Virus record (IMG/VR): IMGVR_UViG_3300009514_000374
Location: 64,001 to 128,000 of that record
DNA: 64,000 nt
Strand: one strand, 5' to 3'
Origin: a virus
Part shown: piece after piece, positions 20,344 to 39,028 of the stretch
Numbering within the stretch: the stretch's first letter is position 1
Layout of the letters: every line of letters begins with the position of its first letter
The notes under the pieces: model-generated
What the model was told of the DNA's origin: nothing
The model's database searches: none
Seen by the model: the letters and a program-made list of their open reading frames with translations, nothing else
Position numbers and translations under genes: made by a program

Positions 20344-22380
20344 ATGGGCCTTGGGCTTGGGAACATTGTCCTCGATGAAGGGCGCGATGCTGACAGCACC
20401 GCCGAAATCGCGGACATTATCACCTTCATCGAATCGGATTGGGGACTCGGCCAAACGCTGTTCCCGGTTCAGAAGGTGATCCTCAAGGCCCACTACGGCA
20501 TCCCTTTGGACGACGTGCCCGAGGGTATGGACGAGGGGCAGCTTGAGCTACTGGAGCACCACAAGTTGCTCAAGCTCGCGCAGGTCGAGAACCCTCTCAT
20601 TGACCCTACGGCCAACGAGAAATACCTGATCCGCTACATCCTGCGGAAACACATCCACGTCACGGATTTCCGCAAGCATCCCATCCCTGACGTGGCCGAG
20701 TGGATGTCCGAAGCCGAGTACCTTCGCCATCTGTACGCGGAAGGTCGGTCGAACATCGCCGAGGTAATCGAGGGGCAGGAGCGCCGGGAGATGATCCTGA
20801 GCGTTGGCCGTCGCTCGGGTAAGACGACCATCTCAGCCTGCATCGCTGCCTACGAGACATACAAGCTGCTCTCCAAGGGCAACCCACAGCAGTTCTATGG
20901 TCTGCCGGATGGCAACACGATCCAGTTGATCTCGGTCGCTACGGACAAGGACCAGGCGGGTCTGCTCTACCGCGACGTTGCCAAGTATTTCGCGCAGTGT
21001 GAATTCTTCCGCACCTATCAAGCCAACGCCACGCAGTCCTTTGCTCGTTTCCAGACGCCCTCGGACATCGAGCGTCACGGCCGGTACGCGGACAATCCTA
21101 ACGCTTCGGCCGCCTCGATCAACGTCACCTTCCGGTCTTGTATCGCTAAGGGACTCCGTGGTGCTGGTAACATCGTGATCATTCTTGACGAGGTTGCCCA
21201 CTTTACGGACGGCGGGCAGTCCTCGGCCGACGAGGTGTACCAAGCGGTCAAGCCCTCGCTGGCTGCCTTCACTGAAAAGAACCCCTACAACAAGGCCGAG
21301 CCCATCGGACCCGTCGAAGGACGGATGATCCTGATCTCGTCGCCGCTTGGCCGTCAGGGCAAATTCTACGAGCAGTTCCAGATCGCCATGAGAGGCGGCA
21401 AGGCGTCGCAGACGATGCTCGCCATCGAGGCACCAACGTGGGAGGTCAACCCGACCATCCCGGCTGAGTTCTTTGAGTCGGAGTACGTGAAGGACACCAA
21501 CATGTTCTTTACGGAGTACGGCGGCAAGTTCTCCGACCGTACTCTCGGCTGGATCGAGGACGCCCGCGACCTGCTCAACTGCGTGGACCCCAACCTCAAG
21601 CCTCGGACCCGTGGCCTTCCCCGTGCGCCCTATTTCATCGGGCTCGACGTTGGCCTCGTGAACGACGGCACGGCGGTTGCCATCGGCCACATTGAGCAGG
21701 AGAAGATCGTTCTCGACTACATCGATCAGATCAAGGCGGGCGAGGGCGAGTACGCCAACTACGAGCGCCTGGAATTTGAGGACGTGTCAAAATGGATCCA
21801 CGACCTCTCGCGGAAATTCCTGATCGATGAAGGCATGTTCGACCAGTGGGCGGGTATTCCGTTGGAGCAGGCGTTGCTCAAGAAGGGCCTGAAACAGATC
21901 AAGGCCACGCACTTTACTCAGGTGCTCAACAGCCAGGTCTTTCGGAATTTCAAGGACATGCTGTTCGACAGCCGCCTCGTTCTGTACGACTACACGGACG
22001 AGCAACGCGAGAAGCTGCGTGACAAAGAGGGCAAGGCACCGGACCACATGCCCTACTTGACCGAGCTATTGACGCTCCAGGCTGACTACCGGAGCAAGTA
22101 CGTCGTGAACGTGTCCGCGCCGAACATCGCCGGGGCACACGACGACCTTTCCGACGCGCTTGTACGCATGGTTTGGCTCGCCAGCCAAAAGCTCTCCAAC
22201 CGGGCGTACATCGCTGGACGGGGCCGACAGACCGGGCCGAACCGGCATCGGATCTCGGCGGGCAAGCAGCGGAAACAGATCCTCGCCTCCAAGAAGGGGG
22301 GCAGCATGGAGCAGCGGCAGCTACGTCGTGTAGGCCGGCAAGGTTTCATGCCTGTTCGTGGTGGAAGGCTCAAGGGGTGA
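20344..22380 (+). CDS. terL: terminase large subunit
   Basis: Walker A GRRSGKTT, Walker B IILDE, ISSP coupling motif, RNase H-fold GLDVG and HDDLSDA. Confidence 0.93.
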   Translation: MGLGLGNIVLDEGRDADSTAEIADIITFIESDWGLGQTLFPVQKVILKAHYGIPLDDVPEGMDEGQLELLEHHKLLKLAQVENPLIDPTANEKYLIRYILRKHIHVTDFRKHPIPDVAEWMSEAEYLRHLYAEGRSNIAEVIEGQERREMILSVGRRSGKTTISACIAAYETYKLLSKGNPQQFYGLPDGNTIQLISVATDKDQAGLLYRDVAKYFAQCEFFRTYQANATQSFARFQTPSDIERHGRYADNPNASAASINVTFRSCIAKGLRGAGNIVIILDEVAHFTDGGQSSADEVYQAVKPSLAAFTEKNPYNKAEPIGPVEGRMILISSPLGRQGKFYEQFQIAMRGGKASQTMLAIEAPTWEVNPTIPAEFFESEYVKDTNMFFTEYGGKFSDRTLGWIEDARDLLNCVDPNLKPRTRGLPRAPYFIGLDVGLVNDGTAVAIGHIEQEKIVLDYIDQIKAGEGEYANYERLEFEDVSKWIHDLSRKFLIDEGMFDQWAGIPLEQALLKKGLKQIKATHFTQVLNSQVFRNFKDMLFDSRLVLYDYTDEQREKLRDKEGKAPDHMPYLTELLTLQADYRSKYVVNVSAPNIAGAHDDLSDALVRMVWLASQKLSNRAYIAGRGRQTGPNRHRISAGKQRKQILASKKGGSMEQRQLRRVGRQGFMPVRGGRLKG

Positions 22381-22642: not shown

Positions 22643-22987
22643 ATGCCGAAAGGACCGCAGACCGAGGAACGTGCTGAGCGTCAGGCGAGGGACCAGGAGA
22701 TCCGTCTTGCCGCGCAGGCACGGGAAAACATCGAGATGCACAAAGCGGCTGACGCGCATCTCGACGTGGCTGCGGCGGCGCTACGCAACGCCCTAAGATC
22801 GCTCCAGAACGTCCGTGTGGCGCGTCGTACTGCGGAAGGCCAGGTGCTCAAACGCAAGCTCAGGGCCGTTGAGCAGGCTGCTGCGGCTCTCAAGCCCATC
22901 GGAAGGGATGCTGGCCGGGTTCGGGCGACCGGGCCGGACTATTCCGACCCCGATTTGTCTATGGGAGGGCCAGGGGTGAATGGCTAA
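22643..22987 (+). CDS. hypothetical basic helical protein
   Basis: ORF overlapping the portal start. Confidence 0.6.
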   Translation: MPKGPQTEERAERQARDQEIRLAAQARENIEMHKAADAHLDVAAAALRNALRSLQNVRVARRTAEGQVLKRKLRAVEQAAAALKPIGRDAGRVRATGPDYSDPDLSMGGPGVNG

Positions 22988-24980
22988 GAAACGCCAAAAG
23001 CGGCGTCGAAAGACCGCTCCACGGCGCTATATCGCCGGATCGGGGGACATCCCCAAGAACGAGGACGCCCAAACGGTTGCCAGCGTGCCGGACAAGCATA
23101 AGCGGCCTCAGTTGTCGGTTGGCAAGCCGCAGCCGATCGTCCTTGGGTCGATGCGATCCAAGGTGGCGAATATCGGCGCAGGCGGATCGGGTTTCGGGGG
23201 CGGTGGGATCGGAGGACCCGGATCGGGTAACACGGGTGCTTTCGGATCCGGGCTTGGTTCGGTTGGCGGCTCGGCGATCGGAAGCGGCGGGAATTTCTAC
23301 TCGCCCGAGCTTTCGACCGATTTCCTTGAGCTACCGCAGAGCCTAGACGAGCAGCGTAACTACTTTCGGTTTTTCTACCGCGCTGACCCGTTCGTCGGGC
23401 AGGCGATGGACATTCACCGCGAGCTTCCGCTGTCGAAGATCCGGCTTGGTCGCCCCGAGGCCAAGGACAAGGATCTTGCTCAGCAGTCGCTCGATTTCTG
23501 CAAGCGGTGGACGAAGATCGTTGGGCTGCTCCAACGGCTGTCGGAAGGGCTGCACGAGTACAACGTCATTGGCGAAACGCACTGGTTCATCGAGGACGAC
23601 AACCCCGATATGCCGGAGGACGTTCGATACGAGATCAAGAACATTCTCCACGAGGATGGCAACTTGGAGGAGACCAAGGAGCTTTGGCCGGACGCGGACG
23701 AGCGCGCCTCCGCGTGGATGAAAAAGAACTACAAGGGGTGGACGCAGGTTCGCATCCTTCCGCCTGAGCAGATTCACATGGACTCGTTCCCGATGTCGGA
23801 CGAGATCCTGGTATCGCTCATTCCCGACTCCAAGACTAAGAGTGTGATCGAGCAGGCCGACCAGGGTGACCAGCGTGCGGTCAAGGTCATGGAGTCGATG
23901 CCGCCTGACATCGTGATGGCGGTGCGGCACGGCGAGAACGTCCCGCTCAATACGGACCCAGACGCAGGGTCGTTCTACTACTACATGGCGAACAAGGTGA
24001 GCCAGTACGAGCCGCGAGGGCACTCTCGGCTTGAACGGTGTATCCGTACCCTCGTCTACAAGGACAAGCTGCGCCAGGCGCAGACCTCCATCTCGTCGCG
24101 GCACATGACGCCTATCCGGCTCGTGTACGCCGAGAACATGAACGAAGCGGACACCGAGGCGCTGCGTGATCAGATCGACCTCGCGCTCCAAGACCCCGAC
24201 TACTCGATCGTCACCAACTTTCAGGTGACGTGGGAGGAAATGACGCCGCAAGGGCGTCTGCTGGAGCTTTCGTCCGAGTACGACCTGATCAACCGGGAGC
24301 TTTATGCGGGTCTTGGAGTGACAGAGAGCCTGCTCTCAGGTGAGTCGAGCTACAGCGGCGATCGGATCAACCTGGAGGTGATCAACGTCCGCTACATGCT
24401 CGTCCGTGAGTTCCTACAGGATTTCGTGGAGAAGAACCTGTTTGAGCCGATGTGTCGGCGCATGGGGTTCATCGAGACGGACGATTGGGGCAACGATGTC
24501 GTCGTTTGCCCGAAGCTCTCGTTCACGAGGCTGGCCCTCCGCGACAACCAGGACGTGTACGACGCCCTGTTCAACCTCTACCAGAAGGGCTCGTTGCCGA
24601 TTAGCGTGATCTACGACCTGCTCAACGTGGATGGGGAGGGTGCGACCGAGGAATTGCAACGCGATTTCGCCACGTTCAAGGACCCCACCTACAACGAGGT
24701 ACTGCGTGGCCTGTACTCGCAGGCGGGGACCAAGCTCGGCGACCAGTCGAATTTCGTGGAGAAGCAGGCCGAATACCTCGGACTGGACTACAAAGAGGAA
24801 GCCGAGGGGATGCAGCGGTTCGGATCGCAACAGGCGCCCTCGCAGCCCCAAGGTCAGCCCGCCGGGATGGACGTGTTGGCTTCTCTCGTGGCTGAGCGGA
24901 TCGCCGGCCAGGTCGCCGATTTGGTCGCCGACAAGATCGTGGAAAAGCTACAAAAGCGGTCTCCTGAGAGCACCGAGTAG
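22980..24980 (+). CDS. portal protein
   Basis: Follows TerL; FFYRADPFVGQAMD.H, YNVIGE, RGHSRLER, GLGV.ESLLSG portal-like pattern. Confidence 0.85.
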   Translation: MAKKRQKRRRKTAPRRYIAGSGDIPKNEDAQTVASVPDKHKRPQLSVGKPQPIVLGSMRSKVANIGAGGSGFGGGGIGGPGSGNTGAFGSGLGSVGGSAIGSGGNFYSPELSTDFLELPQSLDEQRNYFRFFYRADPFVGQAMDIHRELPLSKIRLGRPEAKDKDLAQQSLDFCKRWTKIVGLLQRLSEGLHEYNVIGETHWFIEDDNPDMPEDVRYEIKNILHEDGNLEETKELWPDADERASAWMKKNYKGWTQVRILPPEQIHMDSFPMSDEILVSLIPDSKTKSVIEQADQGDQRAVKVMESMPPDIVMAVRHGENVPLNTDPDAGSFYYYMANKVSQYEPRGHSRLERCIRTLVYKDKLRQAQTSISSRHMTPIRLVYAENMNEADTEALRDQIDLALQDPDYSIVTNFQVTWEEMTPQGRLLELSSEYDLINRELYAGLGVTESLLSGESSYSGDRINLEVINVRYMLVREFLQDFVEKNLFEPMCRRMGFIETDDWGNDVVVCPKLSFTRLALRDNQDVYDALFNLYQKGSLPISVIYDLLNVDGEGATEELQRDFATFKDPTYNEVLRGLYSQAGTKLGDQSNFVEKQAEYLGLDYKEEAEGMQRFGSQQAPSQPQGQPAGMDVLASLVAERIAGQVADLVADKIVEKLQKRSPESTE

Positions 24981-24996
24981 TCCCTTCGTAATCCGC

Positions 24997-25022
24997 TATT
25001 CGGGCTATGGGCGTGCCTCTAG
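24997..25022 (+). promoter_or_regulatory. late-type promoter motif
   Basis: TAT TCGGG CTAT GGGCGTGCCTC TAG; implies a start at ATG 25031. Confidence 0.5.
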
Positions 25023-25030
25023 CGAAGGCT

Positions 25031-28000
25031 ATGGCCCACAAGCCCACAAAGGCGCGGACAGCGTACACCGTCGAACCCACTGAGGGTGGCGTTGTGATCT
25101 GGCCCGAGAATCGGATCGAGCAGGCGTTTATCGACACGTTTGCCGCTCGGGTTGCGGGTCAGAGGCTTGGCGTGGCGAAGGGTCACAATATCGACCTGTC
25201 CGAAGATCCAATTCACCCGGACGAGGACGACGAGGACGAGTGGAAGGTGGACGAGGAACCGATGTCCATGGGGCATTCGGAGCTTCCCGGCGCCGAGGGC
25301 CGGACGGCGCGGGACTGGACCGCGCCAGGCAGAATCCTCGGCTTTAAGATCCGGTACGACGCCGAAAATGTAATGAGCCACCATCCCATCGTGATGGCCT
25401 TCGACGGGGAGACGGAGATTGGTTTCGTTGAGTTGGTCATGCTCGATGACCCTCCCTCTCATTGCGAGGACGAGTGGACTGAGGTTAGGGACGAGTTGGA
25501 ACGACGGGGTGCCCTTGGTGTCTACACCTACGCGGTAGTGGAGTCCTGGCTGGCGGACGAGTATCACCACAACCGTATCGGGGTGGGGATGTACGAGGCG
25601 GCGATGGCTGCTCTGTCAGACCCCCAGGAGCCAGTCATCCTGGTTGCGAGTCGGTGCAGAGGCGGCCCTACGAGCCATCAAGCGAGTCGTGTGTGGGAGT
25701 CCATGGCGCGTCGCTACGTGTCCTCGGGACAGGTTGTTTCGTCCGTTCCCAAGGCCAAAGCTCGGGTGGCGAATGTGGCTCGCCGCTTCATGGCGAAGGC
25801 GACGGGCACCCGTGCCGGCGACGGCTCCAGCGTGGGGTTGTTCATCCGCCTGCCGAAGCACCTGGCGACGCAATTCCCTGGCCTCGGAGAGAACGACTCG
25901 TCTCCAAGCCACGTCACGTTTCTCTACATCGGGGATTTCAAGGACAAGGACGAGCAGGCCCGGTTGGTCGTCACTCTGCGCGACATCCTTCGACGCTGGT
26001 GGCCCAAGTGTAAGGCAAGCCTCGGTGACCTGGAGTATTTCGACCACCCCGACAAGAACCGCCGCGTCCCGCATGTGTCCGTCGATTTCGACAAGGATCT
26101 GTCGGGGTTCAAGCAGCGGGTCATGCAGGAGCTTCGGGACGAGGGCTTTGAGGTCGGTGACAAGTTCCCCGAGTTCAAGCCACACGTCACGCTCGCGTAC
26201 ATGCCAGGCATGGACGGGGAGTGGGACAAGCCCGTGCCAGAAGGCTCGTGGGATGTCACTGAGATGGAGATATGGGGGATGCCCCGCGTACACACGATTC
26301 CAATTGGCAAAGCGTCGAGTCAACGAGTGGCTTCTTTGTGGCTTGAGGGGAGCACCCACGCGAAATCGGTTGCTTTGATGCGGTTCCTGTCCCGATTGGC
26401 TCAGCGTCTCGGGGTTGCCCGTCACACCTACGTCGTTGGCGGGGCCATTCGGAATTTCCTGATCGAGCAACCGATCAAGGACATCGACGTAGTGATCGAC
26501 TCGGTTGCTGCGGGCAAGGATTCCGAGTGGTTTGCCGAGCAGGTTGCGCGTGCCATTCCGGCGCCAACAAACCTGACGACGAACCAGTACGGCGTTGCCA
26601 TCCTGACCGTGAAGGGGGATTGGGATCTGGACGGCGAAAGCCTCAAGGGCGAGGTGATCGAAATCGCCAACGCTCGCAAGGAGAGCTACGGCGGTGCGGA
26701 GGGTAAGGGCTACAAACCACACATGGTTGAGCCGACAACCATTGACGAGGATGTCTACCGGCGCGAATTCACGTTCAACTGCATGGGAGGGGATACTCTG
26801 ATTCCCACCAAGCGGGGTATCCTTCGCATTGATGAGATCGCGTCTCGTGAGAACGGGGACCGGCAAGATATTCATTTGACAGTGGCGGGACAGGACGGTC
26901 CTTCGGAGGCTGTGGGATGGCAGTACAGCGGGTACGCGCCGACTCTGCGGGTGACCTCCGAGTGGGGACACACCTTCACCTGCACCCACCACCACCCCGT
27001 TCTGGTTCTGCGGGGGCATGACCATGAGTGGGTTCAGGCAGATCAGCTTGCAGAGGGCGACCTGCTTTGCGTGCCCGTGCGGCAGGTGTCGAGGCGAGAC
27101 CCTCTCGCTTTGGATTTGCCTGACCCGGTGCAGCCCAAGAGGGGCAGGCTCAAGGGTGCTCGGAAGCCTGAGATAATGACGCCGGAGTTGGCGTTTTTGA
27201 TCGGGTGTGTGGTGGCAGAGGGTTCCAACACCCACAAGCGGGTGTCTTTCAGTAACTCCGACCCCAATCTCATTTCCCGCTACGCCGAGTGCTTCCACGC
27301 CACTTTTGGATTTCTCCCCTCCCGTAATAAGGTGGTGAGCAAAGGCTCTGTCCGTGTCCTACGGGGGGTGGAATTTGTCGCCAACCATGACGGCTACGAC
27401 ATTTACGCCGACAGTAAAGCAGTGGTGGGCTGGTTGGAAGACCTCGGCTTGTACTGCGGAGGCTCCAAGGACGGGAAATCCGCTTCCCATCACAAGGTTG
27501 TTCCGTGGTCGATCCTACAAGCGGACGCGCGTAGCCAGTGGGCGTTTCTTGCGGCTTATCTTGAAGGGGACGGATCTATCCGGCCGGATACCGGGCGCAT
27601 CACATACTGTTCGGCCTCCCCGAAAGTGCGTCAACAGTTGCAGGTGCTCCTGGGAGCGCACGGCATCTTGAGCAAGGTGAAGGATAGGTTTGTCTACCTT
27701 AGCGCCGTGGATTCGGCTCTCTTGTGGGAGAAGGTTCGCCCGTGGATGGTTACCAAGGGGTTCGACTACACGCGAGACAGCAAGTCCCGTAACCGTTACG
27801 GAATTCCCGCAGATCACATCCGGGGGTTTCTTGCGGGCCGTAAACAAGCTCGTTCCGTGTACGCCACGGACGAGGGCGGGCTCCGGTCCCTTCCAGACGC
27901 TCACGAGCCTGTCCGTAAGGTTCAGCGGCTTCTACACGACGCCTACGCTCGGGGAGATTTCGACGGGCTCCTGTCGAGTCTCAAGATCATTAGCGGAGAC

Positions 28001-28888
28001 GAACACGCCAAGCTACAGCGGTTGTTTGACCTGGGCTACCAGTATGTCGAGGTTGCGTCAGTTGAAGATGCTGGAGATCAGGACGTATTCGACATTTCGA
28101 TGGGTGAGGGGGTAGAGCCCGCTTTTGTGGCGAACGGTGTGGTGGTTCACAACACGCTCATGTGGCGGTTGCTGGACCTGACCCACGGACCCGAGAAGGC
28201 CGAGGTAATCGACCTGACCGGCTGTGGTCGCCGGGATCTGGAGCAGGGCGTTCTCAAATGCCCGCGTGACCCCGACATCGTGTTCGCGGACGACGCGACT
28301 CGTATCCTTCGGGCGATCAAATTCACCGGCAAGTACGGATTCAAGATCCCGCCTGACCTGGCCGCCGCGATCAAGCGCAACGCTCCGAAGATGAAGCAGA
28401 TGCCCTACGAGGCGTTGAAAGACATCCTCGTGGATAACATCTTGCCCGAGCCGACCGCTCGCAAATCGCTCCAGCAGATGAAGGATCTCGGCATCCTCGA
28501 TGTGCTGCACGACATGATTCAGGAGCAGAAGCCGTTTGCTTCGGCCATCGCCAAGGTGCTCGGTCGGGAGCGTCGGGTTCAGGTTCTACTCGACTGGCTG
28601 CATCTTGGCCTGCCCGCCAAGACCCCGCTGCATTTCCTTGGGGCGCATGAGCGAGTCCGAGTCCGCGAGATCACGGTTCCGATGGACGAGGACAAGGCGA
28701 CTGATTGGATGCACCGGCTGATCAAGCCTCCGGTCAACAATAACGAGGTCATCGAAGCTCACTCGCTCGTTGGGCGGGACCGCGCGATGATCATGCCGCT
28801 TGCTCGCAAGCTGATTCTCGTAGACCCCGACCTCGCCTACGACGGCCGCGCCCTGACGCGCGAGGTGATTGAAAGGTGGGTGCGGTGA
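25031..28888 (+). CDS. multidomain protein: GNAT-like, 2H phosphoesterase and intein-containing class II tRNA nucleotidyltransferase (CCA/PAP family)
   Basis: EYHHNRIGVGMY..ASRVW; HVTF and HVTL; VVGGAIRN..KDIDVV, RREFTFN, DLTG.GRRDL, DDATRILRAIKF. Confidence 0.85.
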   Translation: MAHKPTKARTAYTVEPTEGGVVIWPENRIEQAFIDTFAARVAGQRLGVAKGHNIDLSEDPIHPDEDDEDEWKVDEEPMSMGHSELPGAEGRTARDWTAPGRILGFKIRYDAENVMSHHPIVMAFDGETEIGFVELVMLDDPPSHCEDEWTEVRDELERRGALGVYTYAVVESWLADEYHHNRIGVGMYEAAMAALSDPQEPVILVASRCRGGPTSHQASRVWESMARRYVSSGQVVSSVPKAKARVANVARRFMAKATGTRAGDGSSVGLFIRLPKHLATQFPGLGENDSSPSHVTFLYIGDFKDKDEQARLVVTLRDILRRWWPKCKASLGDLEYFDHPDKNRRVPHVSVDFDKDLSGFKQRVMQELRDEGFEVGDKFPEFKPHVTLAYMPGMDGEWDKPVPEGSWDVTEMEIWGMPRVHTIPIGKASSQRVASLWLEGSTHAKSVALMRFLSRLAQRLGVARHTYVVGGAIRNFLIEQPIKDIDVVIDSVAAGKDSEWFAEQVARAIPAPTNLTTNQYGVAILTVKGDWDLDGESLKGEVIEIANARKESYGGAEGKGYKPHMVEPTTIDEDVYRREFTFNCMGGDTLIPTKRGILRIDEIASRENGDRQDIHLTVAGQDGPSEAVGWQYSGYAPTLRVTSEWGHTFTCTHHHPVLVLRGHDHEWVQADQLAEGDLLCVPVRQVSRRDPLALDLPDPVQPKRGRLKGARKPEIMTPELAFLIGCVVAEGSNTHKRVSFSNSDPNLISRYAECFHATFGFLPSRNKVVSKGSVRVLRGVEFVANHDGYDIYADSKAVVGWLEDLGLYCGGSKDGKSASHHKVVPWSILQADARSQWAFLAAYLEGDGSIRPDTGRITYCSASPKVRQQLQVLLGAHGILSKVKDRFVYLSAVDSALLWEKVRPWMVTKGFDYTRDSKSRNRYGIPADHIRGFLAGRKQARSVYATDEGGLRSLPDAHEPVRKVQRLLHDAYARGDFDGLLSSLKIISGDEHAKLQRLFDLGYQYVEVASVEDAGDQDVFDISMGEGVEPAFVANGVVVHNTLMWRLLDLTHGPEKAEVIDLTGCGRRDLEQGVLKCPRDPDIVFADDATRILRAIKFTGKYGFKIPPDLAAAIKRNAPKMKQMPYEALKDILVDNILPEPTARKSLQQMKDLGILDVLHDMIQEQKPFASAIAKVLGRERRVQVLLDWLHLGLPAKTPLHFLGAHERVRVREITVPMDEDKATDWMHRLIKPPVNNNEVIEAHSLVGRDRAMIMPLARKLILVDPDLAYDGRALTREVIERWVR
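26780..28153 (+). mobile_element. intein with LAGLIDADG homing endonuclease (458 aa)
   Basis: N-terminal C(MGGDT), block B TCTHHHPV, LIGCVVAEGS and FLAAYLEGDG, block F VFDI, terminal VVHN followed by T. Confidence 0.95.
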
Positions 28889-29970
28889 AGCCATCGGCAA
28901 ACCGCGTCGCGTCGCTCCACCGCGCTGGCTATTTCAGCGTCGGCGACCTGATCTTGTTTGGAAAGTACAAGAACAAGAAGGGCAAGATCGTCGGGTTTGG
29001 CCGCACGGAAAAGAACGTGCCTACGGTCATTGTCGAACCCATCCCCAAGGGCCGCAAAAAGAACAAGGAGATCGGCCTGTTCAAGATCTGGCATGGCGTG
29101 CCTGAGAAGCGTGCGATGACGATGGAGGCTCGTGTAGCTCACCGCTATGCTTTTGAGCACCCAAGCGAGAAGGCTCGCCAGCAGTACCTCAAAGATCACC
29201 CCGGAGCCGATCCTAAGAAGCACCATGTCAAGGGGCCGTCGAAGCCGAGCAAGGTCAAGAGTCTCGTAGATCGGGCGCTCGCCAAGGTGAAGGGCGCGAA
29301 GGACCACATGGTCGCTGCGGTTCGTGCGGCCCCGGCCGAGGTTCACTCGTTCCTGTTCGACAAGGCCCATCGGAACAAGCGGACCAAGGAGCTTGCCGCG
29401 AAGCTCAAGGAGAACGCACCCAAGGCTAAGAAGGCTCTGTTCAGCGCCCTCAAGCGCGAGCTTTCGTCGTTCCCGAAAGCGGGGGCCATCCTCAAGCGGG
29501 TCGCAACGGGAGGCAAGCTCCAAAAGGGCGATGTCAAGACCCTCTATGGTGTCGGCGTCTACATCGCGGGCACTGTTCTTGGCGCGATGTCGGGAGGGGC
29601 TGCGGGCGCGGCTTTGTTTGGGGCCTCCAAGGCGCTCCTGCACAGCCTCAGTTTGCACGCTTCGATCAAGGCAGTCAGCCATCTCGCCGACGAGGGGTTC
29701 CTTGGCTACGAGGCGGTGGAGAGTGGCGCGATGGCGACGGGCCTGGCCGATGCGTTGCCGGTGAACACGAGTGACCTGCCTGGCTTGGGCAAGGTGTTTG
29801 ACGTGCTCAAAGAGGTGGTCACAGCAGCCGACGAGAAGGACGACGAATACCTGCGCAAGTTTGTTGAGGCCATGTACGACGACATTGTGAAGCAACTGGA
29901 GCAGGGCATCAGCGACGCTGACATTCGGGACGTTCTCGTTCACGGGGTTCAGCCAAAGGGGGCCGCATGA
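28885..29970 (+). CDS. composite protein with two tag-B copies (SH3/KOW-like domain and basic helical domain)
   Basis: KPSANRVASLHRA; EARVAHRYA; FSVGDLILFGKYKNKKGKIV. Confidence 0.7.
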   Translation: MKPSANRVASLHRAGYFSVGDLILFGKYKNKKGKIVGFGRTEKNVPTVIVEPIPKGRKKNKEIGLFKIWHGVPEKRAMTMEARVAHRYAFEHPSEKARQQYLKDHPGADPKKHHVKGPSKPSKVKSLVDRALAKVKGAKDHMVAAVRAAPAEVHSFLFDKAHRNKRTKELAAKLKENAPKAKKALFSALKRELSSFPKAGAILKRVATGGKLQKGDVKTLYGVGVYIAGTVLGAMSGGAAGAALFGASKALLHSLSLHASIKAVSHLADEGFLGYEAVESGAMATGLADALPVNTSDLPGLGKVFDVLKEVVTAADEKDDEYLRKFVEAMYDDIVKQLEQGISDADIRDVLVHGVQPKGAA

Positions 29971-32900
29971 GCGCAGCACGCATCGCCGCCCTTCACATGG
30001 CGAAGGCCAGGTACAAGGACAAAAAGGTCGTCAAGGACTCGGACGGGAAGGATATGACCGTGTACGAGTACAGTGACCGCCAGGTTTCCAAGCGGAACAA
30101 CGACAAGGCCGATCGTGTGCAGAAGCTCCGGTCCCTTCGATCCGATCTCGTGAAGCGGGTCAAGAAGGACTACAAGGCCAAGGATCTCAAGACGCGGCTC
30201 ACGGCGTTGGCCGTGGGTTTGATCGACCATACCTACGAGCGTGTTGGCAACGACGAGAGTGCGGGCGAAGGCCACTTTGGCGTGACCGGCTGGCTCGTCA
30301 AGCATGTCTCGTTCTCGGGCGGCAAGGCGACGATCCGGTACGTCGGTAAGAGTGCAGTCAAGCAGACCAAGGTCGTGACTGATCCGGGGGCGGTCAAGCT
30401 GCTCAAAGAAGCGGTCAAGGGCAAGAGCCCCGGCGATCAGATCTTCACCTGCGACGACGCGGGCGAGAAGGTGTGCGTGACCTCGGCCGAGGTCAATGCC
30501 TACCTGCCGGAAGGGATCACGGCAAAGGATCTACGAGGGCTTCACGCGAACGAGGAAATGCTCGTCAAGCTCAAGGCGCAGCGTAAGGGTCCGCTCCCGA
30601 GTGACAAGAAAAAGCGCGAAAAGAAGCTCAAGGACGAATTCAAGCGGGCGCTGGAGGAAACGGCCAAGGTGGTCGGCCACGAGCCGAGCACGCTCCGTAG
30701 CCAGTACCTCGTCCCTGCGATGGAGGACGCCTACATGAAGGACGGCACGGTGATCGACAAGCTCAACGAAAAACGCTCGTCGCTGGAGGCCGCGTGGGAT
30801 CACTTGGCGACCAAGACGGACGAGGAAAAGAAGGACGAGGACGCTGATAAGAACGTCCGCAAGGACCCGAAAAAGAAGCCTCCGCGCTACGACCTCCGTG
30901 ACAACAAGATTCACGATCCTGATCTCAATGGGGATCCCGACATGAAGGACGAGGCCAAGGCCGACAAGGACCCTGATCTCTCCCTCAACTACAAGCGAGT
31001 TGCGCGACGGTTCTTTGCGCGCAAGACCTCACCTACGGAATCCGGCGCCAAGGCGCTGTGGGAGCGGCACAAGCAAAAGAGCCCCGGCACCAAGCTCAAT
31101 TGGCAGGATTTCTTTGAGCGCAAGGACAAGGGCACCATCCAAGAGGTTCGGGACGCGATCAAGCCCAAGGACAAGCCCAAAGACGAGCCCGCGAAGCCCA
31201 AGAAGCCCAAGGCCCCGGAGGACGAGGGCGAGGCTAAGGAGAAGCCCGAGGACGAGGACAAGGCCAAGAAGAAGCCCGCCGAAGGCGAGGCGCCCACTGA
31301 GGATCCGCAGGCTGAGCAAGCCGCCAAGGAGAAGGAGCACAAGGAGCGTGTTCAGAGTGCCGTGACCGATTCGGCGCAGGCATACGACTCCGTGTTCGGC
31401 GGAGGCCGTGTCCAGGTTCCCCGCGAGGTAAGCCGATACCTTCCCCAAGCCCTCTCCAACATGACGCCGGAGCAGGTCGAGAGTTTCAACCAGGCCACGC
31501 AACAGCGCGCTCAGGCGATGCAGAACGAGGGTTTGCGTGGTGAAAATGTGGTCGAACGGGCTGAACGGACGCTGGATGACTACAGCGACGAGCAGATCGA
31601 GAACATCTCTGATCCAGCACGGCTGGCACAGGTAGTTGCTGATCTTACGTTCTCCGAGCACGTCCTGTCCCTCGACAAGAAGCGGCAAAAAGGCGTGAAG
31701 CGGGCGCTTAGCAAAGCGTTCGACCAGATCGAGAAGCAGTTGCAAAAGGAAACCAAGGACGGGCGGTACCGCCTGCCTTCGGAAATTCGACGCACGATCT
31801 CAGACCAGATGGGGAGCTTGGAGCCCGATCAGATCCAACAGTTCGTCCAGGGCGTGACGGAAAACCTGGCGGACAATGCGACCAAGTACGACGACAGCGA
31901 TGAATCTGTCGAGCGCGCCCAAGGTGATCTTGAGGAATTCTCCGAGCTAATCGAGGGAGTTTCGGATCCGAATGTGATGGCGCAAGAGGTCGCTTCGCAG
32001 ATTCGCGCGAAGCGGGTCGTAGAGAAGCACAAGCTCAAGCAAGGCGACCGCAAGCGGGCGATGCGGAAGGTGAACCAGGCGCTTGCACGCTCTATGGGCG
32101 TTCTCGTGTCTGAGCTTCCCCGTGACCTGAGAGGCAAGCTCGATGCGGCCATGGAGCACATGGACCCCTCGGATGTTCTGTCCGTGTCCGAGGCCGTGAC
32201 CGACGAGGCAGGCAAGCTCATGGCTCGGTACGGGGAGAACCCCGAGGATCCGGGCCTGCTTGCAGAGGCCGTGCAGATGGCGTCCGTGGACAAGCTCAAC
32301 ACCACTGACCCTCGGACGCTCGCGCAACAGGCGGCTTTGCTGCTCATGGCTCACGGGAAGCTGGCGAGCCCGTTTGAGGTTGGCGGGACCGAGGTTAGCA
32401 ACGTCCAAAAATCCCCCGAGGAATTGAAAGCTCGCGGGCAGGCTGCGTTCGACAAATTCGCTGCGCTACCGCAGGAGCTTCGGGACACCGCTGCCAAGGA
32501 TCTGCATCGCCGGATCAAGGCCACGAAAAAGGACACCCCCGAGCACGCTGAGTTGAATCGGATCTTGGATGGCCTTGCTCTCGCGGCTTGGACTGATCCT
32601 GAGAACGAGAGAATTCCCTCGATCCCCGGCCGCGCCACGAGCGCAAGGTTTGTCGAGATCGCTAAGGCGATGCGGGCAGACGGCAAGATCCATGAATTGC
32701 TCGACGCGGCCACGGACCAAAATTCGTCGGCAGCGATCGGATCCATGCGTGACGCCATGGCGCGCATGAGCGACGACTCCCTGATCCGGGCCATGAAGGA
32801 CAGCCAGCCGGAGCTTGCGAAAGCCCTGGAGGACTCCATGGCGGGTGGCATCGAGGCCCAATACCTCACGTCCGAAAAGACCGAAATCCTCCGTGACGTG

Positions 32901-33935
32901 ATGCGGGACATCGCCGTGGACGAAATGGCCTTCATGGATGCCGTGATCGGGGATGCGATGGAGGCCGGAGGCAAGGACAAGAGCGTGATGAATTTCCTCG
33001 ACCCCAACGAGCGCGGGAAATTCATCAAAAAACTCACCGAGAAGCGGTCAAAACACTCCAAGGGGTTTCTGGAGCTACTTAAAAACTTGGGAAGCAAGTT
33101 TCAGAGTCTCAGACCCACGAAAACGGCCGACCAAAACTCGGGTTGGGGAGTTTCAAATCTACGGTCGGAAGAATTCAAAATTAAGCTCCGCCAGGAAAAC
33201 CTGCGTGGTGTCCTCAATTTCGTGCAGGCGGAATTTGGGGAACTGCCAAATTCGCCTGCGGTACTCGCAATTCAGCGGTTTTTGGAAACTGGAAATCCCG
33301 ATTTCCTGAATTCGGAACCCGCAAAGGGCGAGTTTGGTCAAGAGGACGAGAATTCGGGGAAAAAATCGTCCTCCAAATTTCAATCTTCCCCCTATACCGG
33401 AGCACTACTAAGTGCAGGGCTCGACGCCTGCGCTGGACGCTCCGTTGCGCCGTCAAGGAGAACACCAATGTCAGAAGCTCTAAAGCAGGCGAAGCTGCTC
33501 ACCTCTCATTTCGACAACGTGGCCGAGCTGGTTCAAAAGAACGCGGCCCTCTTTCAGATTCCCGAGAAGATCGCGTTCGACTTTGCGAAGCGCTGCGATC
33601 TGATTTCGGATCATCTGGAGAAGCACGCTGGTCAGTGGACGATGGACCCCAAGGGGAATTTCAACATCGGCCCCGCTCAGCCCTTCAATCCGGCTGAGAT
33701 CGGCGAACAGGACGCGACGCCTCCCAAGACGGAGCCCGACGAGCCGTACATGAAAAAGAATTTCATCCAAGAGGAATTCGATGAACTGCGGGAGGTTCAG
33801 CAGACCGGCGGTTTCAGCAACGCGCGTGCAGCGGCTCAGGTCAACGCGACCTTCGCCAAGATGGCCGCCAAGGTTGCTGAGCTTGAGGCCAAGCTCGCTG
33901 CAAGCGAGATCCCGACCGCTGACACCGCCGAGTAG
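29967..33935 (+). CDS. type IB topoisomerase catalytic domain fused to large helical domains, with an internal in-frame start at 33468
   Basis: ERVGN, YVGKS, TAKDLR, GH.PSTLRSQY catalytic residues. Confidence 0.85.
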   Translation: MSAARIAALHMAKARYKDKKVVKDSDGKDMTVYEYSDRQVSKRNNDKADRVQKLRSLRSDLVKRVKKDYKAKDLKTRLTALAVGLIDHTYERVGNDESAGEGHFGVTGWLVKHVSFSGGKATIRYVGKSAVKQTKVVTDPGAVKLLKEAVKGKSPGDQIFTCDDAGEKVCVTSAEVNAYLPEGITAKDLRGLHANEEMLVKLKAQRKGPLPSDKKKREKKLKDEFKRALEETAKVVGHEPSTLRSQYLVPAMEDAYMKDGTVIDKLNEKRSSLEAAWDHLATKTDEEKKDEDADKNVRKDPKKKPPRYDLRDNKIHDPDLNGDPDMKDEAKADKDPDLSLNYKRVARRFFARKTSPTESGAKALWERHKQKSPGTKLNWQDFFERKDKGTIQEVRDAIKPKDKPKDEPAKPKKPKAPEDEGEAKEKPEDEDKAKKKPAEGEAPTEDPQAEQAAKEKEHKERVQSAVTDSAQAYDSVFGGGRVQVPREVSRYLPQALSNMTPEQVESFNQATQQRAQAMQNEGLRGENVVERAERTLDDYSDEQIENISDPARLAQVVADLTFSEHVLSLDKKRQKGVKRALSKAFDQIEKQLQKETKDGRYRLPSEIRRTISDQMGSLEPDQIQQFVQGVTENLADNATKYDDSDESVERAQGDLEEFSELIEGVSDPNVMAQEVASQIRAKRVVEKHKLKQGDRKRAMRKVNQALARSMGVLVSELPRDLRGKLDAAMEHMDPSDVLSVSEAVTDEAGKLMARYGENPEDPGLLAEAVQMASVDKLNTTDPRTLAQQAALLLMAHGKLASPFEVGGTEVSNVQKSPEELKARGQAAFDKFAALPQELRDTAAKDLHRRIKATKKDTPEHAELNRILDGLALAAWTDPENERIPSIPGRATSARFVEIAKAMRADGKIHELLDAATDQNSSAAIGSMRDAMARMSDDSLIRAMKDSQPELAKALEDSMAGGIEAQYLTSEKTEILRDVMRDIAVDEMAFMDAVIGDAMEAGGKDKSVMNFLDPNERGKFIKKLTEKRSKHSKGFLELLKNLGSKFQSLRPTKTADQNSGWGVSNLRSEEFKIKLRQENLRGVLNFVQAEFGELPNSPAVLAIQRFLETGNPDFLNSEPAKGEFGQEDENSGKKSSSKFQSSPYTGALLSAGLDACAGRSVAPSRRTPMSEALKQAKLLTSHFDNVAELVQKNAALFQIPEKIAFDFAKRCDLISDHLEKHAGQWTMDPKGNFNIGPAQPFNPAEIGEQDATPPKTEPDEPYMKKNFIQEEFDELREVQQTGGFSNARAAAQVNATFAKMAAKVAELEAKLAASEIPTADTAE

Positions 33936-33939
33936 GTGC

Positions 33940-34500
33940 ATGAAGCACGAGGCCGCCACTCGCTACCAGGAGCTTTCCACCGAGTATTCGGTGGGCGATG
34001 TCGTCCAATTGTTGGAAGGCTCGCTCAGCGATCGAGGGAGAGTGGTGCAAGTGTTTCCGGCGATCGGCATGGTGGACGTGGCCCTCGGCGGGACAACCAC
34101 ACGGTTTCCCGTCGAGGATCTGCTTCGCCTCAACCCCGAAGAAATGGCCGAGGTGCCCGCTGCTGTGGAGCACAACGAGGTTCCGGGGGGTGAAGGGACG
34201 GTTCCCGTTTCAGGCGGCTCGACACGCGGCACTCCCATCCCGAAGCACGGTTCCGTGCTGCGGGTTGCGGAGGCGTTCGTCAAGAAATCGATCTATTGGG
34301 CCAGCCGTGACCGGCAGTACCGCGCCACAAGGGGCGAGATCGAGTCAGGCGAGTATGGCTGCCCCAAGTGCAAGGCTGCCGCGCTTGCACAGACGATCTA
34401 CAAGCGCCGTGAAGGCAAGAGCGCCAGCCTGATGTGCTGCCCTTCGTGCCTGTTCACGATCAAGCGTGAGGATTTCCTGCCAGCGGAGGGGGCTGCCTAG
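33940..34500 (+). CDS. head-module protein with a C-terminal Zn ribbon
   Basis: CPKC...CPSC; VLRVAEAF tag-B-like segment. Confidence 0.7.
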   Translation: MKHEAATRYQELSTEYSVGDVVQLLEGSLSDRGRVVQVFPAIGMVDVALGGTTTRFPVEDLLRLNPEEMAEVPAAVEHNEVPGGEGTVPVSGGSTRGTPIPKHGSVLRVAEAFVKKSIYWASRDRQYRATRGEIESGEYGCPKCKAAALAQTIYKRREGKSASLMCCPSCLFTIKREDFLPAEGAA

Positions 34501-35955
34501 ATGGCTTTCCTACGCTACGCGCGGGCCAAGGTCGTCAAGCCCCACTGCTCTGGACAGCGGTGGCGCAGGGTCCGTACTGCCTCGACGGCAGCGCCCTCGG
34601 CCAACCTGATCACTCAGGCCAACGAAATTCTCGGCTCGGAATTCGACCCGAGCAAGTATCTCCTGACCCACGCGACGATCGTGTGCTCGGTGGATACGTC
34701 AGAGGTTCCAGGGGTCAAGACCGGCTCTGTTATGGATCCCATGACGGGCAAGCGGGTCAACCGCAAGTGGGCCAACTACCGCGTTGCTCCCGAGTGCGAC
34801 CAGTTCATCAACAACAACAACGACTGTTGGGACCGGGGCGTGCTGCTCAAGAGCTATCGCACGTTCGTCGGCGCCCACAACTTTGTTGAGCACGTTCAGA
34901 TCGAGGAACAGTCCAAGGGCCGGATCATCGACGCGGTAGCCCGCGACATCGGCCCCTCGGTCTACACGGACATCCTGATTGCCACCAGCCGTGACCACAC
35001 CCAACTGGTCAAGGACATCGAGGCAGGCAAGATGGCTACCCTCTCGATGGGTTGCTCGGTCACTGAGACGATCTGCACGAAATGCGGAAACGTCGCGGCC
35101 GATGAAACCGAGATGTGTAACCACATCAAATACGAGAAGGGGAACTACTTTTTCGATGACCGGGGCGGCAAGCACCGGATTGCCGAGCTTTGCGGCCATC
35201 CGAGCATCGACCCCAACGGAGGCGTGACTTTCATCGAGGCGTCGTGGGTCGCTACCCCGGCGTTTGGCGGTGCGGTCATGCGGAACATCCTCACGCCGAG
35301 CCAGGCCGTCGCCGACAAGGCAGCCAAGGTTCTCGCTTCGCCTCCGCCTGAGTGGCAGGACGGTGGAATCGACAAGGCTGCGCGCATCGTTCAGGTGCCC
35401 GCTGTCGTGGCCGAGGGTGAATTCGATTTCGGGGACGAGGGCGAAGGCGAAGGCGACGAGGGCGGTGGCGAAATGCCAGACGCTCCGGCGCAAGAGGCTC
35501 CCGCAGCCCCCGAAAAGAAGGACCAACTCCAACAGCTTGAGGACGAGATGTACTCGGAGATGGCTAAGCGAGTGAAGGATCGCATGAAGCGTGATCTCGC
35601 CGGTCCTGAACCCTCCCTGGGAGAGCCTTCACACTCAACTGGTGAGGACGTGATCAAGCAAGGGCGCAAGAAGCAAGCGTATGCCTCTTTCGTCAACAAC
35701 TTGGTCCGTACCGCAGATTCCGATGCAGCCCTGATCGATGGGCTGGCTCGGGCTAATCAGCAAATGGGAATTCAAATCGTCCGCGACCTGTACGTGGCGT
35801 CTCTCAATGTAGGCGCCACGTCCGAGTACGCTTCTTTGGTCGAGTACGTTGGCGCTTGTCGCAAAGCGCTCGGCCGCAAACCAACTCACGGAGAGGCTAC
35901 ACAAATGGTGCGTCTTGGGAAGCTCCTCTCCAAGTGGAAACAGCAACCCAAGTAG
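34501..35955 (+). CDS. prohead maturation protease
   Basis: NFVEH..GRIIDA, LSMGC, FIEASWV..PAF (assemblin/HK97-like); lies before scaffold and MCP. Confidence 0.75.
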   Translation: MAFLRYARAKVVKPHCSGQRWRRVRTASTAAPSANLITQANEILGSEFDPSKYLLTHATIVCSVDTSEVPGVKTGSVMDPMTGKRVNRKWANYRVAPECDQFINNNNDCWDRGVLLKSYRTFVGAHNFVEHVQIEEQSKGRIIDAVARDIGPSVYTDILIATSRDHTQLVKDIEAGKMATLSMGCSVTETICTKCGNVAADETEMCNHIKYEKGNYFFDDRGGKHRIAELCGHPSIDPNGGVTFIEASWVATPAFGGAVMRNILTPSQAVADKAAKVLASPPPEWQDGGIDKAARIVQVPAVVAEGEFDFGDEGEGEGDEGGGEMPDAPAQEAPAAPEKKDQLQQLEDEMYSEMAKRVKDRMKRDLAGPEPSLGEPSHSTGEDVIKQGRKKQAYASFVNNLVRTADSDAALIDGLARANQQMGIQIVRDLYVASLNVGATSEYASLVEYVGACRKALGRKPTHGEATQMVRLGKLLSKWKQQPK

Positions 35956-35976
35956 CCCAAAAGGGAGAACACGATC

Positions 35977-37269
35977 ATGGCACGTCAACGCCTTACTCAG
36001 CAAAGCAAGAACGCTTCTCCGCCCCCGCAGATGCCTGCGAACGATCGGACGGAGAAATCAGAACACCCCGCCGCGCAGCCCGATCCGGGCAAGGACGACT
36101 ACAAGACCGGCGACCCCTCCACTTGGGCCGAGGACGTTCACCCTGGCCCCTACGACACGAGCCCCGCTCCGGCGACTCCAGGCTACGACGAGGCTGCGGA
36201 TCATCCCGCCGCCAAGCCGGGCAAGCCCATGAAGGCGTCGGACGAGGAAGCGTATCGCAGGGCGACCGAGAAAAAGGCCGCCAAGTGCATCCGTATCGCT
36301 CAGGCTCTCATGCCCGAGGCTGCGGTGTCTGCGATCGAGGATCAAGCCCTCGATTTCATGGACCTCCCCGACAGCCAGATCCACAACACCCTCGATCGCC
36401 TTGGCCTTACGGCTGCTGACGACGAGGACGAGGATGACGACGAGGACGAGGGCAACGGCAAAGAAGCCAGCCACGCTCTCACCGCTCGCCTCGACAAGAT
36501 GGAGAGGATGCTGACTCGGATCATGGAAGCCGGGAACCTCTTTGCCGAGAACGGCATGGACATGGATCCCATGGACGACATGATGGGCATGGACGAGGGC
36601 ATGGACGAGGACGCCATGCTTGAGGAAATGCTGGCCGACGACCATGCCGGCCGCCCTCCGAATGACGCTCAGTACGGATACGGAGTTGTCGGCGAGGACG
36701 ACGACCCCGAGGTCGAGGAAATGCTCGCCGAGATGATGGGCGGCCACTACGCTGGCGAGATGCCCGAGGGCCTCAAGAAGCATCTTGAGGAAAAGGAAAA
36801 GGGCAAGTCGGACGACGACTCGGACGACGACTCGGACGACGACAACGGCAAAGAAGCAAAGGCCGCTGACGACGACGAGAACGGCGACGAGGACGAGGGT
36901 GACGACGAGGAGGGCAAGGAAGCCTCGATCCAGATGCTCTCCGACGAGCAAGACCCGATGGGCCTGATGGACCAAACCCCGGCCGGCGACGACGACCTGA
37001 GCGTCCTGTACGAAAAGTTCGCGGGTGACGACGAGGACGACGAGGACGAGGACGAGGACGACGACGACGATGGAGACGAGGACGAGGACGAGGCCGAGGC
37101 CAGCAAGAAGGCCAAGACCAAGACCGCCTCGCTCCGTCCGCAGCCCAAGAAGCCCTCCAAGGGACCAAAGAAGCTCGGGCAGGTAAGCAAGACGGCATCT
37201 TCGGAGGTCGCTGAGCTTGCTTCCCTCTGGAAGACTGACCCGGACGTTTCGTCCGTGTTCAACGGGTAG
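35977..37269 (+). CDS. acidic scaffolding protein
   Basis: Poly-D/E tracts, repeated KEA/KTA sites, position between protease and capsid genes. Confidence 0.65.
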   Translation: MARQRLTQQSKNASPPPQMPANDRTEKSEHPAAQPDPGKDDYKTGDPSTWAEDVHPGPYDTSPAPATPGYDEAADHPAAKPGKPMKASDEEAYRRATEKKAAKCIRIAQALMPEAAVSAIEDQALDFMDLPDSQIHNTLDRLGLTAADDEDEDDDEDEGNGKEASHALTARLDKMERMLTRIMEAGNLFAENGMDMDPMDDMMGMDEGMDEDAMLEEMLADDHAGRPPNDAQYGYGVVGEDDDPEVEEMLAEMMGGHYAGEMPEGLKKHLEEKEKGKSDDDSDDDSDDDNGKEAKAADDDENGDEDEGDDEEGKEASIQMLSDEQDPMGLMDQTPAGDDDLSVLYEKFAGDDEDDEDEDEDDDDDGDEDEDEAEASKKAKTKTASLRPQPKKPSKGPKKLGQVSKTASSEVAELASLWKTDPDVSSVFNG

Positions 37270-37286
37270 TTCCTATCCGTTCCAGG

Positions 37287-37317
37287 CGCTCCCACTTTTT
37301 CACGAAAAGTGGGAGCG
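37287..37317. terminator. 13-bp hairpin after the scaffold gene
   Basis: CGCTCCCACTTTT / AAAAGTGGGAGCG; no T-tract. Confidence 0.55.
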
Positions 37318-37325
37318 GTCCTCGG

Positions 37326-37352
37326 TAAAGAGCCAATAGATCCGACAGATAG
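37326..37352 (+). promoter_or_regulatory. late-type promoter motif upstream of the capsid operon
   Basis: TAA AGAGC CAAT AGATCCGACAGA TAG. Confidence 0.55.
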
Positions 37353-37464
37353 ATAGAAGGGGGGAGTGCGGTTGTCTCAAAGGTGTCCATGGTGGGCACG
37401 AACCGTCCCCCGGATCGATCACCAGCCCTTGTAAACAGGGAGTAGGAAAGGCCAAAGGAACAAG

Positions 37465-38127: not shown

Positions 38128-38137
38128 GAGTAGAACG

Positions 38138-39010
38138 ATGACCGTATCTAACGCTACCAAGCAAAAGATCATCTCGGACTACATCAAGACTCCGACTGGT
38201 CGCGCCAAGCTGGCTGCCTCGATGACGCAGCCTCTCCGCACCCGACGTGACTACACGTCTGTTGGGCGCCGTACCTTCCTTGTCGAGCAGTTGCCAGATG
38301 GCGCGCTCCCGATCTACGACAAGGATCCCGATGTCACGGCCTACGTCGTCGGCGAGGAAGGCGAGAACATTCTCGCCATCACCAAGCCACGTCGCGTGAT
38401 CTTCCCGCTGTTTGAGATTGCCTCCAACCCGGAGATCCCTCTCACTCAGATCAAGGAGCGCAGGTTCGATCTGATCGAGCGCGCGCAAGACCTTGCTCGG
38501 GCTCAGATCCAGGCCGCCGAGGACGAGCGTGTGTTCGCTATCCTCGACGCCATCGCAACTGTCGGTTTCGATTCGCTTCCGGGCGGACTCAACCCCGACA
38601 TTCCGGTTGTCGCTCCCATCTCGGGTGCGGTGCTGGCTGACGCCTTCTCGCTCATTGAGCGCCACGACCTCCGGGTCGCGCGCGTCTACATGAACGCGAG
38701 GGACTACGCCGACATCCGCAAGTTCGGTCGGGACATTCTCGACATCGAGAGCCAGGCGACGCTGCTCAAGACTGGTCTGCAAGCTACCCTCTGGGGTGCC
38801 CAGATCATCACGAGCCGCCTCGTTCCGGTCGGCACGGTGTACGTCTGCTGCGAGCCCGAGATGTTTGGCCGCATCCCGGTTCGTACGGAATTGACCGTCT
38901 TGAGCGCGGACGACCCCCGCGCCCGTACCATCGGTTTCTCGGTTTTCGAGAACCTCGGCATCGGCGCCTACAACCCGCGCGGCCTGACGCGTCTGACCAT
39001 CACCCGCTAG
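38138..39010 (+). CDS. major capsid protein (HK97 fold)
   Basis: AGGAG RBS; FEIASNPEIPL..IKERRFDLIERAQ..IQAAED, YMN..DYADI, LWGAQIITS. Confidence 0.9.
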   Translation: MTVSNATKQKIISDYIKTPTGRAKLAASMTQPLRTRRDYTSVGRRTFLVEQLPDGALPIYDKDPDVTAYVVGEEGENILAITKPRRVIFPLFEIASNPEIPLTQIKERRFDLIERAQDLARAQIQAAEDERVFAILDAIATVGFDSLPGGLNPDIPVVAPISGAVLADAFSLIERHDLRVARVYMNARDYADIRKFGRDILDIESQATLLKTGLQATLWGAQIITSRLVPVGTVYVCCEPEMFGRIPVRTELTVLSADDPRARTIGFSVFENLGIGAYNPRGLTRLTITR

Positions 39011-39028
39011 TCGTAGCGAGTGACGGAG

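Follow-up and report, generated by a model that had tools for sequence, protein, structure and literature searches.

A topoisomerase IB cassette in the head-gene block of a huge phage and its possible role as capsid cargo

Poxviruses package a type IB topoisomerase (TopIB) in their virions, where the enzyme aids early transcription; for phages, no description of a virion TopIB, or of any other virion topoisomerase, was found in the literature. What such an enzyme may do beside phage head genes is the question raised by the viral DNA studied here, a stretch of 64,000 nucleotides (nt) that comprises bases 64001-128000 of the 141-kb IMG/VR virus record IMGVR_UViG_3300009514_000374 and is referred to below as the window. 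Within its block of packaging and head genes, an open reading frame (ORF) on the plus strand, nt 29967-33935, encodes P0001, a protein of 1322 amino acids (aa) that opens with a TopIB module and closes with a 155-aa domain designated C-dom. An earlier note on this DNA, made from the sequence, had proposed that the phage may package a topoisomerase for DNA packaging, ejection or first-round transcription. With moderate confidence, we read P0001 as a polyvalent-type cargo protein of the head locus, which would carry an active, cofactor-free TopIB and would be docked through the shared C-dom.

The reading frame was open for all 1322 aa, and its architecture recurred in independent metagenomes, P0002 being 58% identical across 99% of the length, while loci L002-L006 came from five samples. 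Since the same architecture was seen in independent metagenomes, a sequencing artefact is unlikely, and the ORF is one real gene. Genes of the window lay almost all on the plus strand, and those of the block were tightly packed on one strand in the order large terminase (TerL), portal, a tRNA-repair polyprotein, p364, P0001, p186, prohead protease, p430, p220 and major capsid protein (MCP), p430 and p220 being the genes between the protease and the MCP. From p364 through the protease, genes abutted or overlapped, and the start of P0001 overlapped the stop of p364 (ATGA). The MCP shared 92% identity with that of LR745208.1, a 485-kb uncultured phage, 48% with that of the Tunturiibacter phage Tunturi_5, and 38% with gp27 of Bacillus phage G. 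The record was 30% complete by CheckV, which implies a genome of roughly 470 kb; the phage encoding P0001, uncultured and of huge size, is a relative of Bacillus phage G.

Residues 42-272 are the catalytic domain of a type IB topoisomerase of the pox/bacterial subfamily, with a complete active site. Pfam family PF01028 matched residues 42-245 (E 6.9e-23), and phmmer against PDB sequences found the enzymes of D. radiodurans (3.4e-12) and variola virus (1e-6), with the catalytic R, K, R, H and Y aligned. Order and spacing of the pentad agreed with variola TopIB (R92=R130, K128=K167, R190=R223, H238=H265 and Y247=Y274), the His being of the pox type and the H-to-Y spacing being 9. The five residues were invariant in 50 of 50 relatives sharing 42-82% identity with the query, as were many surrounding positions, e.g. 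GHFGVTGW. The AlphaFold2 model of the region (pLDDT 84.5) had TopIB structures as its best matches (Foldseek 4e-12 to 3m4a; VIA Z 22.2, root-mean-square deviation (rmsd) 2.8 A over 219 residues), whereas tyrosine recombinases scored lower (VIA Z 13.5 or less). Comparisons with the D. radiodurans enzyme gave Z 21-22 and rmsd 2.3-2.8 A over 207-219 residues, model residues 42-272 superposing on D. radiodurans residues 88-338 at 2.8 A. These results confirmed the earlier observation that a short motif, tag B (AARIAALHMAKA, residues 3-14), directly precedes a TopIB core possessing the catalytic R, K, R, H and Y.

The usual N-terminal domain, which the earlier note had regarded as lacking, was mostly but not entirely absent. 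Residues 1-87 of the D. radiodurans enzyme had no counterpart in the model, and no beta-sheet clamp domain of ~80-90 aa was found. Ahead of residue 42, the model contained only helix 3-13, corresponding to tag B, and a hairpin at residues 18-34, whose TVYEYS aligned with the pox GRRQYFY strand and whose Y33 and Y35 were at least 90% conserved in the 50-relative alignment. Judged from the model, then, the N-terminal domain is largely but not wholly missing, and the short start was common to the whole family (module residues ~12-270). In this respect P0001 differs from pox and bacterial TopIB (vaccinia/variola, D. radiodurans), in which the ~80-aa N-terminal domain is not cut to a hairpin after a tag-B helix; those are stand-alone enzymes of 314-346 aa, whereas the phage module, about 20-27% identical to them, is a cassette in very long proteins.

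Loss of most of the clamp domain and embedding in a long non-enzymatic chain might be taken to mean that the fold is catalytically dead and has been retained in an internal head protein for DNA binding or for structure. We regard this as highly improbable because the pentad was invariant, together with many positions around it, and the module keeps its identity while its partners change completely (see below); moreover, the vaccinia catalytic domain alone reportedly retains activity. The sequence suggests instead that the TopIB module is catalytically active and acts as a cofactor-free DNA swivel, since enzymes of this family relax DNA without ATP or Mg.

The module is not confined to P0001-like proteins. 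An exhaustive, profile-free search with residues 1-298 as query, in which proteins were 50%-identity representatives, matched 2636 proteins, 495 of them at E<=1e-30. The matched unit was always the ~260 aa corresponding to about residues 12-270, located at the start, in the middle or at the end of proteins of 326-3381 aa. Partner domains in the long relatives included 2H/LigT phosphoesterase, RNA ligase, CCA-type polymerase, PAP2, NUDIX, Fe/Mn superoxide dismutase (SOD), carbonic anhydrase, GNAT, DUF5661, LPD1 and, just below threshold, ART-PolyVal; RNA-end enzymes were the commonest. While these partners changed completely, the TopIB module kept 55-65% identity. Genomic context was taken from 75 related IMG/VR loci, many on 200-536-kb contigs, which after deduplication gave 59 distinct TopIB ORFs; in 41 of these, an R[VI]AA[RK]Y helix followed by KxKKK stood directly before the module. 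The tag-B-led unit of ~260 aa is thus a mobile cassette found beside unrelated enzymes in huge-phage proteins of 0.3-3.4 kaa. That tag B is a mere part of the TopIB fold was considered and rejected, the same motif being present on p364, p186 and other proteins. A further rearrangement was seen between P0006 and P0007, in which two modules of ~128 and ~100 aa following TopIB (residues 271-500) occurred in opposite order at 80-89% identity, the proteins being otherwise collinear. The junctions fell right after ...RVA, ...REA and ...TAA, which are candidate recombination or cleavage joints, although suggestive only.

Such chains resemble the polyvalent proteins, multi-domain proteins of phages and conjugative elements predicted to be packed in the capsid and co-injected (Iyer, Burroughs, Anand, de Souza, Aravind 2017, PMC5512222). 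Relatives of P0001 were likewise long multi-enzyme chains beside portal/terminase-type virion genes, and P0001 itself was flanked by TerL, portal, protease and MCP. LPD1 was present in relative L045, and ART-PolyVal in P0033 scored 30.8 against a cut-off of 31.2. With 2-15 disparate domains as the definition, TopIB-bearing relatives clearly qualify, whereas P0001 possesses one recognised enzyme domain plus unassigned regions and had no LPD, ART-PolyVal, MuF or zincin domain (Pfam E<=0.01). Neither tags nor a nested C-dom belong to the published description (PMC5512222), in which topoisomerase occurs only in the reference list, TopIB not being among its modules. No description of TopIB as a polyvalent-protein module was found in the literature, and the multi-omics paper on phage G mentions neither topoisomerase nor packaged cargo.

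At the opposite end of P0001, the last ~140 residues matched 39 loci, in most of which (about 30 of 39) they started a separate ORF of 170-440 aa that directly followed the polyprotein gene and preceded those of p186 and the protease. Met1168 corresponded to the start codon of these free-standing genes and was preceded at 7 nt by AAGGAG, a Shine-Dalgarno (SD)-like site resembling the ribosome-binding sites of the genes at 35977, 10700 and 38138. C-dom was fused in five lineages, and in each of the five an in-frame ATG preceded by an SD-like site was retained at this position. Thus, the gene showed the sequence signals of a nested pair, namely a start codon within the frame and a ribosome-binding site to serve it, and C-dom is probably also made alone from the internal start in the window phage. 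Nested in-frame head-assembly genes are known in lambda (C/Nu3), Mu (I/Z) and P2 (gpO), the long form being a protease and the short form a scaffold. P0001 shares with them this kind of internal start, equipped with a ribosome-binding site, in a long gene near the protease and capsid genes, but its long form carries TopIB and its short form is predicted from sequence signals. In the C-dom model, a helical hairpin predicted with confidence was followed by an acidic, disordered stretch and then by a long helix at the C-terminus; the best match of the model in BFVD had E 0.65, no usable match was obtained from the ESM Atlas, and the C-dom profile against PDB gave a best E of 0.2, at chance level.

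The position of TopIB in the related genomes was examined next to these features. In 31 of the 59 distinct loci the gene lay between portal and prohead protease, and in 12 a solo TopIB of ~350 aa immediately followed TerL and preceded the portal, so that 43 of 59 had TopIB inside the packaging/head block; placement was unclear in two. The solo forms (L008, L013, L029, L031, L033, L041-L043, L046-L049, L066, L068, L072 and L075) carried a conserved ~80-aa C-terminal extension. In all 16 of these loci, counted before deduplication, the distance from the TerL stop to the TopIB start was -4 to +6 nt, and the solo gene is accordingly spaced as one predicted to be translationally coupled to TerL.

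This junction with TerL upstream of the portal, together with the position just after the portal elsewhere and the independence of the family from ATP and Mg, would suit a packaging accessory that works with terminase and portal, outside the head or at the vertex, and removes twist while ~0.5 Mb of concatemeric DNA enters the head, without being injected. Such a role is the main rival to our reading, with which it is compatible insofar as capsid loading is concerned, and we consider it unlikely: most loci string TopIB together with enzymes of no plausible packaging role (SOD, carbonic anhydrase, NUDIX, 2H, CCA), and even in the solo forms a tag-B helix is retained at the N-terminus, as on other proteins of the head locus.

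The remaining loci bear on another explanation, namely that TopIB is an ordinary late enzyme that works inside the infected cell in replication, recombination or the repair of nucleic acids, and that only operon history put its gene in the head block; it might, for instance, take part in end chemistry together with the 2H phosphoesterase, RNA ligase and CCA modules nearby, RNA-end enzymes being the commonest fusion partners. Phage-specific TopIBs of the jumbo phages phiRSL1, Lu11, PaBG and Motura have been discussed as DNA-topology enzymes (Iyer et al. 2021, PMC7824862). ORF108 of phiRSL1 was the only cultivated-phage match to the TopIB domain of P0001 (30% identity, E 2e-8); unlike P0001, it is a protein of 559 aa encoded among nucleotide-metabolism genes (NUDIX, pncB and dCMP-deaminase), with no head-locus chain. 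The intracellular role keeps some weight because in a quarter of the related loci the gene is remote from head genes, yet it appears rather unlikely to us, given that the packaging/head placement recurs at two different positions across subclades, that TopIB is fused to a C-dom with a nested start, that tag B is common to other head-locus proteins, and that the identity to the phiRSL1 enzyme, only 30%, extends over part of the domain.

The reading of P0001 as capsid cargo draws on precedents for enzymes in phage heads, which include the polyvalent proteins, T4 Alt and P1 Dar (PMC5512222), and phiKZ, whose enzymes are loaded into heads and processed by the head protease (PMC13282480). T4 internal proteins and Alt, as well as the inner-body proteins and virion RNA polymerase of phiKZ, enter the procapsid, where the prohead protease trims them, and leave the head together with the DNA (PMC13282480, PMC5512222). 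Cargo of this kind is marked by short terminal peptides, such as the N-terminal capsid-targeting sequence in T4, to which the N-terminal tag B is a candidate equivalent, although no sequence relationship between these proteins and P0001 was found. We know of no T4- or phiKZ-type capsid-loaded system that carries a topoisomerase.

By this reading of P0001 as cargo, the gene would be expressed late together with the head genes, and both the long form (TopIB to C-dom) and the short form (C-dom alone) would be made. The shared C-dom, perhaps with tag B, would dock the long form inside the procapsid, where the prohead protease may then cut at linkers; P0001, which the earlier note had called a polyprotein, may be one in the sense of proteolytic cutting. 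Because it needs neither ATP nor Mg, TopIB could accompany the ~0.47-Mb genome as an autonomous swivel and relax torsional stress while the DNA is packed, ejected or first transcribed; the data favour none of these three uses, all named in the earlier note, over the others.

Loading of the enzyme into the capsid, as the earlier note had proposed, is partly supported, by context: the head-block setting, the polyvalent-like relatives and a C-dom with its own start signal; the proposal fits less well with the 14 of 59 loci in which no head gene lay within 10 kb of TopIB. These loci are the first of several points that weigh against capsid cargo. One of these loci, L074, did in fact have the capsid gene ~3.6 kb upstream of TopIB. 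Five genomes of this class contained one or two TopIB matches, the strong match lying 40-300 kb from a capsid gene that was 84-86% identical to the window MCP. Two of the genomes, complete at 398 and 437 kb, had a single TopIB copy, at a distance of 160-300 kb from the capsid gene, and neither TopIB nor C-dom in the head locus. The association of TopIB with the head block is therefore strong but not obligatory. In addition, P0001 has one recognisable enzyme domain and no hallmark domain of polyvalent proteins; C-dom matched no known scaffold or targeting domain among PDB sequences, BFVD and the Atlas; the internal SD may simply be left over from a fusion that took place recently; and no homologue of any part of P0001 was observed in the examined head regions of phage G and Tunturi_5, which are the cultivated relatives by capsid protein.

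A wider proposal, which we put forward tentatively and with considerable doubt, is that capsid loading is modular throughout the clade, enzyme cassettes being addressed to the head either through fusion upstream of a C-dom that would also be made alone from the retained internal start, or through the tag-B helix. TopIB would then be the first phage virion topoisomerase, serving as an energy-free swivel for genome spooling or first transcription at a half-megabase scale. If TopIB is packaged, the finding bears on how genomes of this size spool in and out of the capsid without torsional arrest, and a DNA-topology enzyme would join the list of phage-injected proteins. Whatever its role, the family, comprising hundreds of 50%-identity clusters, offers enzymologists a TopIB that is reduced by nature to ~260 aa and lacks most of its N-terminal clamp, and the predicted nested C-terminal gene provides a testable handle on how cargo is addressed to the head in huge phages.

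Coordinates of P0001, its parts and the surrounding genes are listed in Table 1.

Table 1. Features of the P0001 locus in the window
Feature	Position (nt)	Strand	Remarks
Large terminase (TerL)	20344..22380	+	phrog_2, 1.2e-23
Portal protein	22980..24980	+	phrog_16240, 1.2e-26; phage G gp14, 2e-52
1293-aa 2H-phosphoesterase/CCA-type polymerase protein (tRNA-repair polyprotein) with intein	25007-28888	+	
p364, upstream neighbour of TopIB ORF	28876..29970	+	tag B at residues 10 and 86
TopIB ORF (P0001), 1322 aa	29967..33935	+	full-length homologues P0002, P0003/4/6/7
Tag B copy 1 (AARIAALHMAKA, residues 3-14)	29973..30008	+	low-confidence modelled helix
Beta-hairpin, residues 18-34, TVYEYS	30018..30068	+	sole remnant of canonical TopIB N-terminal domain
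TopIB catalytic domain, residues 42-272	30090..30782	+	Pfam, PDB sequence match, conservation, structure
Catalytic codons	R92 30240, K128 30348, R190 30534, H238 30678, Y247 30705	+	
Highly charged linker, residues 273-470	30783..31376	+	48% charged
Conserved KKKPPRYDLR in linker	30870-30899	+	
Tag B copy 2 (YKRVARRFFARK, residues 342-353)	30990-31025	+	
Residues 471-800, tandem repeat in three copies of ~100-145 aa	31377..32366	+	no known family
Region of no assigned family, residues 801-1167	32367..33467	+	part 761-900 shared with 19 loci
AAGGAG SD-like site	33455..33460	+	7 nt before in-frame ATG 33468
C-dom, Met1168-Glu1322 (155 aa)	33468..33935	+	separate small gene in most relatives
p186, conserved small gene, tag B and zinc ribbon	33940..34500	+	between TopIB ORF and protease
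Prohead maturation protease homologue	34501..35955	+	phrog_18299, 1.9e-10; phage G gp19, 9e-19; Tunturi_5 gp331, 4e-53
Major capsid protein (MCP)	38138..39010	+	phrog_2522, 2e-49

The ~1050 aa downstream of TopIB had been described in the earlier note as some 1000 aa of charged and helical domains with a second tag B. The charge (27-48%) and the second tag B were borne out, while helical structure was modelled for the last 155 aa only. No Pfam or PHROG match was obtained for residues 271-470, residues 471-1180 or C-dom, and residues 471-1167 matched none of the PDB sequences. The linker module was present in 57 loci and, in the solo-TopIB subclade (class B), opened a large protein after the portal. 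Residues 471-1167 were common only to the closest full-length relatives, except for the part at 761-900 (19 loci).

Among the neighbouring genes, p364 contained at residues ~15-80 (nt 28918-29115, plus strand), between its tag B copies, a small beta module of very basic composition (FGKYKNKKG...PKGRKKNK...FKIWH). The module recurred upstream of TopIB in more than 20 distinct loci, either in cis or as the preceding gene, and six of these had TopIB away from head genes. It may be a DNA-binding partner that replaces the lost TopIB N-terminal domain. On the other side of P0001, a longer mechanical ORF at 33781-34500, which overlaps the 3' end of the P0001 gene, had been a candidate for a wholly spurious frame; this was rejected, its 3' part, from about 33940, being p186, a real conserved gene of 186 aa. 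The p186 protein comprised a small beta domain, tag B (SVLRVAEAF) and a CxxC...CxxC ribbon, and virtually every related head locus, with or without TopIB, had the p186 gene directly before that of the prohead protease. In phage G and Tunturi_5, whose head regions were compared, matches were limited to portal, protease and MCP, and neither p364 nor p186 had a counterpart there.

The intein of the tRNA-repair polyprotein carried a LAGLIDADG domain. Overlong core head ORFs were observed in several related loci, namely TerL of 1065-1119 aa (L009, L048, L070 and L076), portal of 980-1090 aa (L047, L060 and L070) and protease of 919-1371 aa (L004, L009, L054, L070 and L075). The long TerL ORFs matched the intein-containing part of the window CCA polyprotein, which suggests that core head genes contain inteins and/or fused cargo. 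Downstream of the block, a terminator-like hairpin (GAAAGCC..GGCTTTT) was located at nt 39044-39062 on the plus strand, 34 nt past the MCP stop, and was the sole strong plus-strand candidate in the head block; the promoter/terminator scan of nt 20000-39900 that revealed it was at chance level overall and was used for this hairpin only. Directly after the MCP, an 830-aa ORF (nt 39119-41611, plus strand) had LAGLIDADG and HNH homing-endonuclease matches as well as DNA-methyltransferase-like PHROG matches.

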